Positions 25,477 to 29,821 of a stretch of 64,000 bases of DNA are shown here, piece after piece; the stretch's first letter is position 1, and each line of letters opens with the position of its first letter. Below the pieces are notes generated by a model that saw only the letters and a list, made by a program, of their open reading frames with translations, was not told the DNA's origin and did no database searches. Source of the DNA: an uncultured Chloroflexia bacterium (GTDB lineage Bacteria; Chloroflexota; Dehalococcoidia; Dehalococcoidales; RBG-16-60-22); the NCBI GenBank assembly GCA_963796365.1, contig CAWCLJ010000004.1, forward strand, positions 1,162,519 to 1,226,518. Direction: 5' to 3'. The translations under genes and the position numbers were made by a program.

Positions 25477-26244
25477 CTACTTCAATACCAGCACATTGGC
25501 AAAAACCTGCCACGCGAGCAGCGACTTGGCGGTGAGACTAAGAATAATATAGGCCTTTTCGCCGTAGAGATAATCGCGCCAGCGCCCAACCTGTTTGTAT
25601 TGCAGCACCATATTAATAGCAAAGCAGTTAAAGAAAACAAACAGGGAAACGATGATGCCGTAAACGAACCCGGGCGGCGATACGCTGATTCCGGGTGCCG
25701 CCACATAAACGGCGATGGCAATCCACGGAATGATGCCGGCAAAGCTCCCCATCCAGAACGGCAGCCAGCCCGCTTTGCCCGGTTTTTCATATTTTTCCTG
25801 CAGCGCGCCGAAAAGAATCATGCAGGCGTTGACGCCGAAGATGGCCATCAACGCGGCTACATCGCTGATGCCGGTAATCTGGGCTATCAGCACAATCATT
25901 ATCGAAGAGCTGAAGAAATACTCTATCCAGCGCCCGTAATTTTTGTTCTCCAGCAGGTTGCGCCTGTACCAGGGAAAAACCCAGGGAGACGCGATGGTCA
26001 GCAGTGAAAGCGCGGAGATGGCCATGAAGGCGAAAACACCCCAGCCGGTCTGGATGTCCCAGATTTGATGGAGCGTGACGGCGCTGCCGGGCGGGCCCTG
26101 CATGAAGGTAGCGGATACCGGCAAAGAGAAATTATTCGTGAATACCGCCATGGCGACGGCCTGGGCGGCGAGAACCAGCCCGACCACGATATTCCAGACT
26201 CTTAGATTATTGAGTTTGCGTTCCATAGACTGGTCAACAGCCAT
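25477..26244 (-). CDS. heliorhodopsin
   Basis: 255 aa, 7-TM. Family blocks 'RWIEYFFSSSIMIVLIAQ', 'AIFGVNACMILFGALQEKY', 'PGFVYGIIVSLFVFFN' and 'ILSLTAKSLLAWQ' (retinal Lys), plus the counterion-position Glu in 'WIEY'. Confidence 0.85.
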   Translation of the reverse strand: MAVDQSMERKLNNLRVWNIVVGLVLAAQAVAMAVFTNNFSLPVSATFMQGPPGSAVTLHQIWDIQTGWGVFAFMAISALSLLTIASPWVFPWYRRNLLENKNYGRWIEYFFSSSIMIVLIAQITGISDVAALMAIFGVNACMILFGALQEKYEKPGKAGWLPFWMGSFAGIIPWIAIAVYVAAPGISVSPPGFVYGIIVSLFVFFNCFAINMVLQYKQVGRWRDYLYGEKAYIILSLTAKSLLAWQVFANVLVLK

Positions 26245-26360
26245 ACTGAACTCCTTTCTCCCCTGTTGAGTAGTCCCGCTTTTTTGTTAAATTTGTTTTA
26301 CCGCTCACGAGAAAGGGTAACTCGATAAGTGTTTCAGGTAACCACCCCGGCTCCGATTCT

Positions 26361-26828
26361 CTATTTTACCTGGGTCGTAAGGAACATCTGCAGGCCCATC
26401 TGTGTCATCTGGTCTTGCGCCTCTTCAATATCGTTGACATGGCCGTCTTCGTCATTCAATATGTGCTCAAGGATTTCACGGGTAGCGAAGTCCTTGGCAT
26501 CCCCGCACAGTTTGATAGCCGCATTATACCGCTTCACGGCATCCAGCTCGGCTTCGTGGTCGCTGGCAAACATCTTGGGAACGTCGGCGCCGATATTCAT
26601 TTTCTCGAGTTCGCTTACTACCGGGATACCGTCAAGAAATAATATCCGCCCGATGAGTGTTTCCGAGTGTTTCATCTCGGTCACGGCGCGCTTCTGGATG
26701 GTGTCATGAAGTTTGGTATAACCCCAGTTATCGCACATTTCGGCATGGACCATGTACTGGCTGACGACGGTCAGCTCGCGGGCCAACAAAGAATTAAGTG
26801 CCTCCAGGACTCCAGTATCCCCTTTCAT
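26361..26828 (-). CDS. bfr: bacterioferritin
   Basis: 'LNSLLARELTVVSQYMVHAEM', 'AVTEMKHSETL' (heme Met context) and 'ILNDEDGHVNDIEE' (ferroxidase ligands). Confidence 0.9.
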   Translation of the reverse strand: MKGDTGVLEALNSLLARELTVVSQYMVHAEMCDNWGYTKLHDTIQKRAVTEMKHSETLIGRILFLDGIPVVSELEKMNIGADVPKMFASDHEAELDAVKRYNAAIKLCGDAKDFATREILEHILNDEDGHVNDIEEAQDQMTQMGLQMFLTTQVK

Positions 26829-26996
26829 TTTTGCCTCCTATTTGTTTTAATTTCACTTAGTTTTATACCGAGAGCATCAGCGACACCTTTTCCATAAGCT
26901 TTACCGGCTTTTCAGACAGTTGCCGATGTGCCTGATTTTAACTTCTTTCGGCGCATCTCCCGTTTGGAAACGATGTTCAATACCGTGTGTCAATGA

Positions 26997-29180
26997 TCAG
27001 ATGAGGTCGAAGCGGTCAAGGTTCATCACCTTATTCCATGCCGCGATAAAATCCTGCACGAATTTTTCTCGCGCGTCTTCGCTGGCGTAGACTTCCGCCA
27101 GCGCGCGGAGCTGGGAGTTCGAACCGAATACGAGGTCGACCCGGGTGCCGGTCCATTTTAATTGGCCGGTCCGGCGGTCTCTCCCTTCGAAAATATCTTT
27201 GGCGTCGGATATCGCTTTCCATTCTGTTCCCATATCCAGCAGGTTTACGAAAAAGTCATTCGTTAGTGTCCCGGGGCGACTGGTGAAAACGCCATATTGG
27301 GTTTGGCCGTAATTGGTATTCAGGGCCCGCATCCCGCCGATGAGAACCGTCATTTCCGGCGCCGTCAGCGTCAGTAATTGCGCCCGGTTCACCAGCAATT
27401 CCTCGGCGGATACCGGGAACCTGGTTTTCAGATAGTTGCGGAATCCATCCGCCAGCGGCTCGAGTACGGTGAAAGAAGCCGCGTCCGTTTGCTCCTGTAA
27501 AGCATCCATGCGTCCCGGTGTGAAGGGAACCGTCACTTTATAGCCGGCGTTCCTGGCGGCCTGTTCGACGCCCGCGCAGCCGGCCAGCACGATCAGGTCT
27601 GCCAGCGAGACCTTCTTACTACCGGATTGCGTACTGTTGAACGCGCTCTGGACGTTCCCGAGAACCTTAAGCACCTTTGCCAGTTGGGCAGGTTGATTGA
27701 CTTCCCAGTCTTTCTGTGGCGCCAGGCGAATACGGGCGCCGTTGGCGCCGCCGCGCTTATCCGAGCCGCGGAAAGTGGACGCCGATGCCCAGGCAGTCGT
27801 CACCAGCTCCGGTATCGATAAGCCGGAAGCCAGGATCTTACTTTTGAGTGCGGCGATGTCCCTGGTATCGATTAGTTTGTGATTGACGGCAGGGATGGGG
27901 TCTTGCCAGACGAGTTCTTCCGCCGGGACCTCCGGCCCCAGATAGCGTGTGCGGGGACCCATGTCGCGGTGGGTTAGCTTGAACCACGCCCGGGCAAACG
28001 CGTCCGCCAGTTGCTCCGGGTGTTCATAGAAGCGCCTGGCAATTTTTTCATAAATGGGGTCGAACCTTAAGGAAAGGTCGGTGGTCAACATGCCCGGCGC
28101 GCGGCGTTTGGACGGGTCGTGCGGGTCGGGCACGGTGCCGGTCCCGGCATCGCCTTTAGGTTTCCATTGAAACGCACCGGCCGGGCTCTTTGTCAGTTCC
28201 CATTCGTAGCTGAACAGGTTTTTTAAGAAGTTATTGCTCCACTTCGTTGGTGTCTGGGTCCAGATGACCTCAGGGCCGCCGCTAATCGCATCGTTGCCTT
28301 TACCCGTACCAAATCGGCTCTTCCATCCCAAGCCCTGCTCCTCGATAGAAGCTCCTTCCGGCTCAGGCCCCACCAGTGTCTTGTCGCCGGCACCGTGGGT
28401 TTTCCCAAAGGCGTGGCCGCCGGTGATAAGGGCCACCGTTTCCTCATCGTTCATGGCCATGCGGGCAAAGACCTCGCGGATATCCCTGGCTGCGGCAACC
28501 GGGTCCGGGTTGCCGTTCGGCCCCTCCGGGTTCACATAGATTAAGCCCATTTGAACCGCCCCAAGTGGTTTTTCGAGTTCACGTTCACCCGTGTAACGTT
28601 TGTCGCCAAGCCACTCTTTTTCGGAGCCCCAGTAGACGTCTTTTTCCGGTTCCCAGATGTCCTCACGCCCGCCGCCGAAACCGAAGGTCTTGAAACCCAT
28701 GGATTCCAGGGCGACGTTACCGGCGAGGACCATCAGATCGGCCCAGGAAATTTTCCGGCCGTATTTCTGTTTAACCGGCCACAATAGCCTCCGTGCCTTA
28801 TCGAGGTTGGCGTTATCAGGCCAGCTGTTCAGGGGCGCGAAACGTTGGCTGCCGTTACCGGCGCCGCCGCGGCCGTCGCCCATACGGTAGGTGCCGGCGC
28901 TGTGCCATGCCATACGGATAAACAAAGGTCCGTAATGGCCGAAGTCTGCGGGCCACCAGTCCTGCGATTTTGTCATCAGTTCACGGAGGTCCTTCTTTAC
29001 CGCCGCCAGGTCGAGGCGCTTGAATTCTTTGGCATAATTGAAGCCCTTGTCCATAGGATTGGACCTGGAAGACCGCTGGTGCAGGATATCGAGATTCAAC
29101 TGGTTCGGCCACCAATCCCGGTTTGTCGTGCCTATACCGGCAACAGTCGCCAATCTATTTAATGTATCATCATCAGGCAT
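26997..29180 (-). CDS. katG: catalase-peroxidase
   Basis: '[11 protein letters not shown]', '[15 protein letters not shown]', two-domain length. AAGGAGGGG lies upstream of the ATG at 29180; the listed ORF start at 29249 is less likely. Confidence 0.95.
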
Positions 29181-29302
29181 ATTCCCCTCCTTTTTACAGT
29201 TCATGAACAGGCATTTACTTAATATATTAAATATTTTATGAAAAATCAATGCCTTCAGATATAACTTATGTCACAAATTAAAGGAGGCAAGGAAGAAATA
29301 AA

Positions 29303-29331
29303 TTGACGGGACTGTTTTTACAGACTATTAT
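29303..29331 (+). promoter_or_regulatory. candidate marR promoter in the katG-marR divergent region
   Basis: TTGACG (29303-29308), a 17-bp spacer, then TATTAT (29326-29331), about 25 nt before the marR ATG. Confidence 0.5.
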
Positions 29332-29356
29332 CTGAATAAACACAAAGAATGGCGCA

Positions 29357-29821
29357 ATGAAAGAAAAACCTGTTTTTGACGAATATTACAGACTCTGGAT
29401 GCTTTTAGCCGAGACCAGGTCGGCGGTATTTAAGGTGAGGCATAAAGTAGTCGGGAAATATCTGCCTCCCAATCATACGGCTGCCCTTATCGCAATCTGG
29501 AATTGGGAAGGACGGATAAGCCCGGCAATTCTGTCACAGCGGCTTTTCCTCGAGCCGCATACCGTCTCCGAGCTTATCAAGCGGATGCAAAAAAAAGGCC
29601 TGGTGACGAAGAAAAAGGACCCGGAGCGCGGCAATATCGTCAGGATTTCCATTACGGCAAAGGGACAGGAAGTCTGCAACCAGACCATGGGGCAGGAACT
29701 AATTCGTGGTTACATGTCCGCCCTTACCGCCGAACAGCGGGAGAAGCTGCGGGAAATATTGACGGTCCTGCACAGTAAAGCGCTGAAGGAACTGGGGATA
29801 GAAGAAGATGAATATCCCTAA
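29357..29821 (+). CDS. MarR-family transcriptional regulator
   Basis: Winged-helix region 'ISPAILSQRLFLEPHTVSELIKRMQKKGLVTKKKDPERGNIVRISIT'. Confidence 0.85.
   Translation: MKEKPVFDEYYRLWMLLAETRSAVFKVRHKVVGKYLPPNHTAALIAIWNWEGRISPAILSQRLFLEPHTVSELIKRMQKKGLVTKKKDPERGNIVRISITAKGQEVCNQTMGQELIRGYMSALTAEQREKLREILTVLHSKALKELGIEEDEYP

Follow-up and report, generated by a model that had tools for sequence, protein, structure and literature searches.

Does a heliorhodopsin (HeR) gene that directly follows genes for peroxide and iron detoxification belong with them, or has it simply come to lie there? The question is raised by a 64,000-nt stretch of DNA from an uncultured Chloroflexia bacterium (positions 1,162,519 to 1,226,518 of contig CAWCLJ010000004.1, assembly GCA_963796365.1; hereafter, the window), in which genes for a catalase-peroxidase (katG), a bacterioferritin (bfr) and an HeR follow one another on the minus strand, and a MarR-family regulator gene (marR) is divergent from katG. 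A preliminary description of this locus suggested that the three genes are transcribed together and that the HeR is a light sensor, linked to the detoxification genes, that anticipates photo-oxidative stress. We compared the locus with 180 related loci, including 165 HeR loci from scans of species-representative genomes and of metagenomes, almost all of them from Dehalococcoidales metagenome-assembled genomes. On balance, we lean towards the explanation that the HeR promoter now drives katG-bfr-HeR as one MarR-flanked transcript, which would serve a joint response to light-driven oxidative stress.

Apparent insertion of katG-bfr into the HeR leader

A tblastn search with the window genes revealed a gene backbone that is kept across the relatives, namely speD-speE-(Ppnp)-zf_Tbcl, HeR, and isochorismatase-CxxCxxCC-AHSA1-OYE. 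In nine syntenic relatives (L003-L006, L077, L097, L098, L100 and L112), HeR and the zf_Tbcl zinc-ribbon gene are ~300 nt apart, and the interval lacks katG, bfr and marR. When the DNA of L003 was aligned to the window, homology ended at 30097 and restarted at 26257, with 112 nt in L003 taking the place of 3.8 kb in the window. The nearest relative, L175, is a 5-kb contig that was found by searching with the MarR protein. Its flank DNA is 91-94% identical to the window, and its zf_Tbcl, speE and speD proteins are 100%, 95% and 93% identical, respectively. Here, the gene divergent from marR (79% identical) is HeR itself (89% identical, clipped by the contig end); a gap of 178 nt separates the two, and neither katG nor bfr is present. 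This gap is 84% identical to the 176-nt intergenic region that separates marR from katG in the window, of which the marR-side half is also kept, and the promoter TTGATT-17-TATATT falls within the shared part.

Five relatives (L001, L081, L086, L099 and L175) have the same promoter 69-71 nt ahead of the HeR start codon. In the first four of these, whose HeRs are 84-91% identical to that of the window, it is flanked by the box GTGAYAnAAGTYAYAT on the upstream side and AAGTAAATAC on the downstream side. The corresponding boxes of the window, listed in Table 1 and shared with L175 as well, may be regulator sites and are candidates for an operator role. With two mismatches allowed, the promoter motif of the clade had two minus-strand sites in the region, one upstream of katG and one upstream of the isochorismatase gene, and was not found in the 116-nt spacer between bfr and HeR. 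Only the last 13 nt of this spacer, which include the ribosome-binding site (RBS) AAAGGAG, are homologous to the regions upstream of HeR in the relatives, with blastn homology starting at 26257.

The simplest reading of these comparisons is that a katG-bfr module of ~2.95 kb sits in the 5' leader of HeR, with the ancestral HeR promoter on one side and the RBS of HeR on the other. By the same comparisons, the katG-bfr-HeR array is recent and confined to one lineage. Conservation of the neighbourhood among HeR-bearing Chloroflexota, which the preliminary description had proposed as a check, was not found: the order katG-bfr-HeR was seen in 0 of the 165 HeR loci, and a tblastn search of these loci with Bfr gave no match at E ≤ 1e-5. 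The place beside HeR is held by zf_Tbcl in the nine syntenic relatives and by marR in L175. A contig available as a gene map only (JGI 3300075153), which came up in the search for Bfr homologues, has the synteny of the window and a bfr gene (88% identical) 85 nt upstream of HeR, without katG or marR; past HeR it continues with DegV, a 181-aa gene, isochorismatase and CxxCxxCC. The pairing of katG and bfr was also found in other Chloroflexota loci where there is no HeR. In L168-L170, Bfr homologues (80-82% identical) lie directly past KatG (81% identical) with a gap of 76 nt, and in L173-L174 katG and bfr are convergent, so they form a recurring pair independent of HeR.

Two other routes to the present arrangement were considered. 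A deletion of katG-bfr in L175 is less parsimonious, because four more relatives keep the promoter ~70 nt from HeR. A simple inversion linking the window to L081, in which katG is divergent from HeR, was rejected because the promoter would then face away from HeR. No convincing terminal, direct or inverted repeats were found around the block when 25100-30300 was searched, and there is no transposase or integrase within the block.

The katG homologue nearest to that of the window (91-93% identical) lies in L081 (5932-8126), where a frameshift near residue 309 splits it into two open reading frames (ORFs); the split either marks a pseudogene or stems from faulty assembly. MarR homologues (71-72% identical) in L176-L179 are divergent from a FAD_binding_4 / CCG / FAD_binding_4 cluster (GlcD/GlcF-like), and such a cluster also flanks katG-HeR in L081 (1350-5219), which hints at a common ancestral neighbourhood.

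Predicted transcription of katG, bfr and HeR

Promoters and terminators were sought with consensus scans, the former for Escherichia coli-type sigma-70 sites. On the minus strand from 29221 to 25502, the scans detected no promoter match of at least 9/12 and no terminator. No terminator-like hairpin was found in the 168-nt spacer between katG and bfr or in the 116-nt spacer between bfr and HeR, and neither spacer gave a better fold than its shuffled controls (z = -0.34 and +1.38, respectively), in agreement with the preliminary description, which saw no convincing terminator in these gaps. Each gene is preceded by a strong Shine-Dalgarno sequence. The array thus has the sequence-level features of an operon, i.e., one strand, an upstream promoter, and no promoter or terminator inside it. 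The displaced HeR promoter upstream of katG, together with the lack of an internal terminator or promoter, makes a single katG-bfr-HeR transcript from the ancestral HeR promoter likely. The earlier proposal of co-transcription thereby gains support at the level of sequence.

The transcript likely ends at two terminator-like hairpins downstream of HeR, and the promoter-like site that follows them is predicted to mark the start of a separate isochorismatase unit. Besides the two hairpins, the stretch 25121-25476 contains a plus-strand ORF of 51 aa (25284-25439) with a sub-threshold match to SUI1 only; no small ORF within this stretch had a family match. An Rfam scan of 24000-31000 (E ≤ 1) detected no riboswitch or leader RNA, and gave two chance-level matches to small RNAs outside the operon.

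The history and working of the locus may be pictured as follows. The ancestor would have carried HeR behind its own promoter, ~70 nt upstream, which in the nearest relative is divergent from marR. The katG-bfr module would then have been inserted within this ~70-nt leader, and the ancestral HeR promoter would now read katG, then bfr, then HeR, with the first terminator-like hairpins lying past HeR. Either the divergent MarR protein or another factor that binds the conserved boxes may control this promoter. Common control would thus extend to the catalase-peroxidase, the bacterioferritin and the light sensor in one response to light-driven oxidant stress, with HeR possibly serving as a slow-cycling sensor to modulate a partner protein.

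The last step is drawn by analogy with HeRs for which operon-encoded partners have been reported, i.e., glutamine synthetase for AbHeR (PMC9529153), photolyase for TfHeR (PMC9769723) and the OmrDE ABC transporter for OcHeR (PMC11109279; see also PMC12873467). The HeR of the window resembles these in sharing a strand and a predicted common promoter with enzyme genes. The ten groups of operon partners given in PMC11109279 include neither catalase nor bacterioferritin. A common promoter speaks for co-expression, not for signalling from HeR to katG or bfr, and does not tell the direction of control.

Identity of the genes

The ORF coordinates, strands and gap lengths in the preliminary description all matched ours, apart from a single slip in which the end of bfr was once written as 28828 in place of 26828 (Table 1). 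Its placement of the locus in Chloroflexota is borne out by the relatives, and its assignment of the 255-aa protein to the HeR family was confirmed by profile searches. The protein matched PF18761 with 314.9 bits (cut-off 26.7) over profile positions 1-242 and NF038020 with 313 bits (cut-off 100), and aligned end to end with HeR 48C12 (PDB 6SU3; E = 7e-74). In this alignment, the Schiff-base Lys is K240 (LSLTAKSLLAWQ), the counterpart of K241 of 48C12 in helix 7, and the counterion Glu is E108 (RWIEY), the counterpart of E107 in helix 3; both are invariant across 32 members of the HeR clade. The window protein is thus like 48C12 in its full-length family match and in these two residues, as read from its translation. 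Further hallmarks of the family are an inverted membrane topology, with the N-terminus inside, retinal binding and a slow photocycle. His23 and His80 of 48C12, which are common in the family and not defining for it, are replaced by Leu25 and Leu81, also invariant in 32 close homologues. The same two replacements occur in HULAa30F3, an HeR from a Dehalococcoidia fosmid (H25L/H81L; the positions are L25 and L81 here) that bound retinal and showed low M accumulation (Chazan et al., bioRxiv 10.1101/2021.02.16.431466); its genomic context differs from that of the window. The sequence thus identifies the protein as a genuine heliorhodopsin of the Dehalococcoidia Leu25/Leu81 subtype. It has more than 7,700 homologues, the top 120 of which share at least 80% identity with it, and its dN/dS of 0.04-0.11 against the relatives indicates purifying selection.

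KatG matched TIGR00198 with 1227.8 bits (cut-off 770) and NF011635 with 1330.6 bits, and has two PF00141 peroxidase domains and the distal Arg-Trp-His motif. Bfr matched TIGR00754 with 152.8 bits (cut-off 125.55). Its translation has Met52 as haem ligand and E18, E51, H54, E94, E127 and H130 as ferroxidase residues, all at the ligand positions of E. coli Bfr. The MarR protein matched PF12802 (32.3 bits) and PF01047 (31.9 bits), which assigns it at the level of a family domain above cut-off, and every NCBIfam equivalog was far below its own cut-off. It has a single Cys (C107) and lacks the N-terminal Cys of the OhrR type.

Table 1 Features of the katG-bfr-HeR locus and its surroundings (positions in the window).
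Feature	Position	Strand	Remarks
Isochorismatase gene	24569-25120	minus	Next gene past HeR
Promoter-like site TTGACA-17-TATACT	25165-25193	minus	11/12; ahead of isochorismatase gene
Two terminator-like hairpins	25286-25300, 25226-25243	minus	Downstream of HeR; consensus scan only
Heliorhodopsin gene HeR	25477-26244	minus	255 aa; ORF listing and profile searches
bfr-HeR spacer	26245-26360	minus	116 nt
Bacterioferritin gene bfr	26361-26828	minus	155 aa; ORF listing and profile searches
katG-bfr spacer	26829-26996	minus	168 nt
Catalase-peroxidase gene katG	26997-29180	minus	727 aa; ATG at 29180, stop at 26997; RBS AAAGGAGG before ATG
katG-spacer-bfr block	~26258-29205	minus	~2.95 kb, ends approximate; absent from nearest relatives
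Conserved box AAGTAAATGCCTG	29208-29220	minus	Past -10; invariant columns in alignment A5
Sigma-70-like promoter TTGATT-17-TATATT	29221-29249	minus	69 nt upstream of katG ATG; alignment A5
Conserved box GTGACATAAGTTATAT	29259-29274	minus	Just upstream of -35; invariant columns in alignment A5
Promoter-like site TTGACG-17-TATTAT	29303-29331	plus	Upstream of marR; divergent from katG promoter
MarR-family regulator gene marR	29357-29821	plus	154 aa; ORF listing and profile searches
zf_Tbcl zinc-ribbon gene	30272-30568	plus	Synteny anchor; adjoins HeR in nine relatives

About 10 kb from HeR, the window encodes a GAF-HisKA_3 histidine kinase (13336-14544), two response-regulator-like ORFs (12445-12900 and 12926-13339) and a rubredoxin-like ORF (~15070-15270), which together span 12445-15270. 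A patch of low GC content (4993-8092; 0.38 versus ~0.50 elsewhere), in which an AAA_15/AAA_21 ATPase (4993-6966) and a transposase of the Mutator/IS256 family (6848-8092) are encoded, is probably a mobile or defence element.

HeR neighbourhoods across the clade

To profile the genomic context of HeR, 1,989 crude ORFs of the 165 loci were grouped into clusters, which were then annotated with Pfam. Five loci other than the window have katG within 10 kb of HeR, in four geometries. In L081, the HeR of which is 91% identical and the closest outside the window's own contig, katG is divergent from and adjoins HeR at 372 nt. L008 has katG divergent from a DUF5661-ABC-ABC2-DUF3243-HeR array, L030 has Fur-rubrerythrin-katG convergent with HeR, and in L105 and L110 katG and HeR share a strand. 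The genes of L105, all on one strand, encode a Fur-family regulator, rubrerythrin, KatG, a peroxiredoxin, HeR and DegV. The peroxiredoxin gene upstream of HeR (L105:3379-4095) has an in-frame TGA at the position of the peroxidatic Cys (FYPGDFTFV-TGA-ATE), as is also the case in L101, L104, L106, L110 and L135, and it probably encodes a selenocysteine peroxiredoxin. The ORF finder splits this selenoprotein into two halves, each of which was counted in the enrichment reported below.

Genes of the Fur family, possibly PerR-like, are located upstream of HeR in 15 loci (e.g., L019, L054, L071, L030, L058, L062, L089, L091 and L105), on the same strand in 14 of them, and are often followed by rubrerythrin and, in two loci, by a flavin-reductase-rubredoxin fusion. 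Rubrerythrin and flavin-reductase-rubredoxin are typical oxidant defences of anaerobes. A DJ-1/PfpI gene is directly upstream of HeR in 11 loci, at least five of which continue with a 150-aa gene of no known function, a ferritin-like gene and a ZIP transporter. In its fuller form, this recurrent module consists of a MASE3-PAS histidine kinase on the opposite strand, a response regulator, a small Lar-like gene, DJ-1/PfpI, HeR, the 150-aa protein, the ferritin-like protein and ZIP; loci with the module are L009, L010, L014, L021, L035, L051, L067, L068, L115 and L138. Other recurrent neighbours included TspO (n = 10 loci), a SOUL haem-binding protein (n = 10), Staygreen (n = 11), ABC transporters, and pairs of a MASE3 histidine kinase and a response regulator. 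Tetrapyrrole-binding proteins (TspO/MBR, SOUL and Staygreen) are encoded within three genes of HeR in ~25 of 160 loci (e.g., L028, L040, L011 and L024), which suggests a link to photosensitising porphyrins.

For the enrichment, we counted homologues of KatG, Bfr/ferritin, rubrerythrin, peroxiredoxin, Fur, DJ-1 and flavin-reductase-rubredoxin in 160 HeR loci. These peroxide and iron families made up 9.4% of the genes next to HeR, 7.4% of those at the second position on either side, and ~1% of those at least five genes away (43/506 near versus 8/851 distant; odds ratio 9.8). A third of the loci (53/160) had a peroxide/iron or tetrapyrrole-binding gene within three genes of HeR. Across the clade, genes for peroxide, iron and tetrapyrrole proteins cluster beside HeR in at least ten arrangements. 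The peroxide and iron link that was seen at first in the window alone is upheld in this broader form, such genes being about ten times commoner at the two positions beside HeR than farther out. Peroxide-defence genes are repeatedly in one predicted unit with HeR, i.e., katG-bfr in the window, Fur-rubrerythrin-katG-selenoperoxiredoxin in L105, and, at other loci, DJ-1 with ferritin and ZIP.

An association of this kind has precedents. Catalase genes were found beside HeR in at least three Actinobacteria, thioredoxin, peroxidase and catalase were enriched near HeRs, and HeRs were proposed as sensors that trigger the defence against photo-oxidative stress (Bulzu et al. 2021, PMC8612252). Chazan et al. 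(bioRxiv 10.1101/2021.02.16.431466) reported SOUL, AhpC/TSA, PNPOx and photolyase families near HeRs, likewise proposed a link of HeR to photo-oxidative stress, and found DegV and DUF2177 to be the most HeR-specific neighbours. In contrast to the actinobacterial cases, the window is from Chloroflexota and has a bifunctional KatG together with a bacterioferritin, and here the origin of the array and its promoter could be traced. The idea of a light sensor that anticipates photo-oxidative stress had thus already been put forward in these two studies, and the narrower claim that the HeR senses light on behalf of katG or bfr finds no support in the locus.

Weighing the explanations

Several observations weigh against a joint, promoter-shared response. 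The array exists in a single lineage and its nearest relative, L175, lacks katG-bfr, so the array is perhaps too young to reflect selection. The block from marR to HeR is only ~81-85% identical to L175 at the DNA level, compared with 91-94% for the flanks; marR and its promoter (29208-29803) are ~81% identical, the flank at 30092-32448 is 91-94% identical, and the dS of HeR is 0.49. Since the block is more diverged than its flanks, recombination has reshaped this spot. The promoter and boxes are also present in relatives without a nearby marR (L001 and L081), and MarR may therefore not regulate the promoter. Consensus scans of the type used could miss a weak promoter within the unit, be it in the 116-nt gap or in bfr itself. 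The enrichment relies on families picked from among HeR neighbours, on crude ORF calls and on loci that are phylogenetically non-independent, and oxidative-stress families also occur beside proton-pump rhodopsins (Chazan et al., bioRxiv 10.1101/2021.02.16.431466).

In one rival explanation, katG-bfr landed by chance in a recombination-prone, variable spot and is tied to HeR by read-through at most, a neutral juxtaposition that we regard as credible though fairly unlikely. The context of HeR in the clade is extremely variable, with dozens of sets of neighbours in the 165 loci; L175 manages without katG and bfr and its marR-HeR block has diverged unlike the flanks; DegV-DUF2177, the commonest partners of HeR, are missing from the window; and the proton pumps have oxidative-stress neighbours too. 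Against chance stand the steep drop of peroxide and iron genes with distance from HeR and their recurrence in at least ten arrangements, several of which are on the same strand and directly upstream of HeR (Fur-rubrerythrin-katG-peroxiredoxin-HeR in L105 and L110, the bfr-HeR contig, and DJ-1-HeR-ferritin). Moreover, the insertion left HeR behind a promoter, not silenced, and HeR is under purifying selection.

Alternatively, HeR may be expressed from an unrecognised promoter in the 116-nt spacer or the 3' end of bfr, with katG-bfr regulated apart from it. We consider this unlikely. Each gene has a strong RBS of its own, the genes, 116-168 nt apart, are widely spaced for a tight operon, and the reach of the scans to sigma-70 consensus sites would leave room for such a promoter. 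In Pseudomonas aeruginosa, the catalase gene katA is followed by the bacterioferritin gene bfrA in the same order as here, and the two use different promoters (PMC3963858); that catalase is the monofunctional KatA rather than KatG, and no rhodopsin is involved. On the other side, the stretch from katG to HeR has neither a match of at least 9/12 nor the HeR promoter motif of the clade, whereas the conserved HeR promoter is intact upstream of katG, with no terminator past katG or bfr.

Finally, HeR might act with DegV and DUF2177 in the remodelling or repair of membrane lipids, as hypothesised by Chazan et al. (bioRxiv 10.1101/2021.02.16.431466), in which case genes for peroxide and iron proteins would share its regulation without being its partners; DegV does lie past HeR on the same strand in 45 of the 165 loci, followed in 38 by a 177-aa protein of no known family, and DegV and DUF2177 are the neighbours most specific to HeR in that study, but no DegV or DUF2177 remnant was found in the 345 nt past HeR and DegV and its follower gene, which come after HeR in syntenic relatives, are absent from the whole 64 kb, so the local evidence does not support a lipid role, which is improbable here as a rival and not exclusive of the favoured explanation.

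The explanation that the displaced HeR promoter drives a joint katG-bfr-HeR response thus retains our preference. A bolder extension is that the HeR of Dehalococcoidales is a working part of peroxide and iron defence, in which light-activated HeR would directly modulate a haem or iron protein, KatG or Bfr for instance, or gate their supply of haem or iron; to this we give little credence at present.

Implications

What is new here is the katG-bfr insertion in the HeR leader, the displaced promoter, and the breadth of the association of HeR with peroxide, iron and tetrapyrrole genes in Dehalococcoidales, while the photo-oxidative-stress idea and the Leu25/Leu81 subtype of HeR were already known. 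The locus establishes no new principle. It adds evidence from Chloroflexota to the photo-oxidative-stress hypothesis, for which the case has so far been built mainly on neighbourhood statistics and a few Actinobacteria. For most bacterial heliorhodopsins the function is open, and the few reported cases all emerged when proteins of the same operon were tested. The window and its relatives offer a natural experiment, with the same promoter ahead of HeR alone in the relatives and ahead of katG-bfr-HeR in the window, and the comparison points to the junctions, the promoter and the candidate partners, i.e., KatG, Bfr and MarR. If HeR were indeed to modulate a haem or iron protein, these largely anaerobic bacteria would have an oxidant defence that anticipates light.

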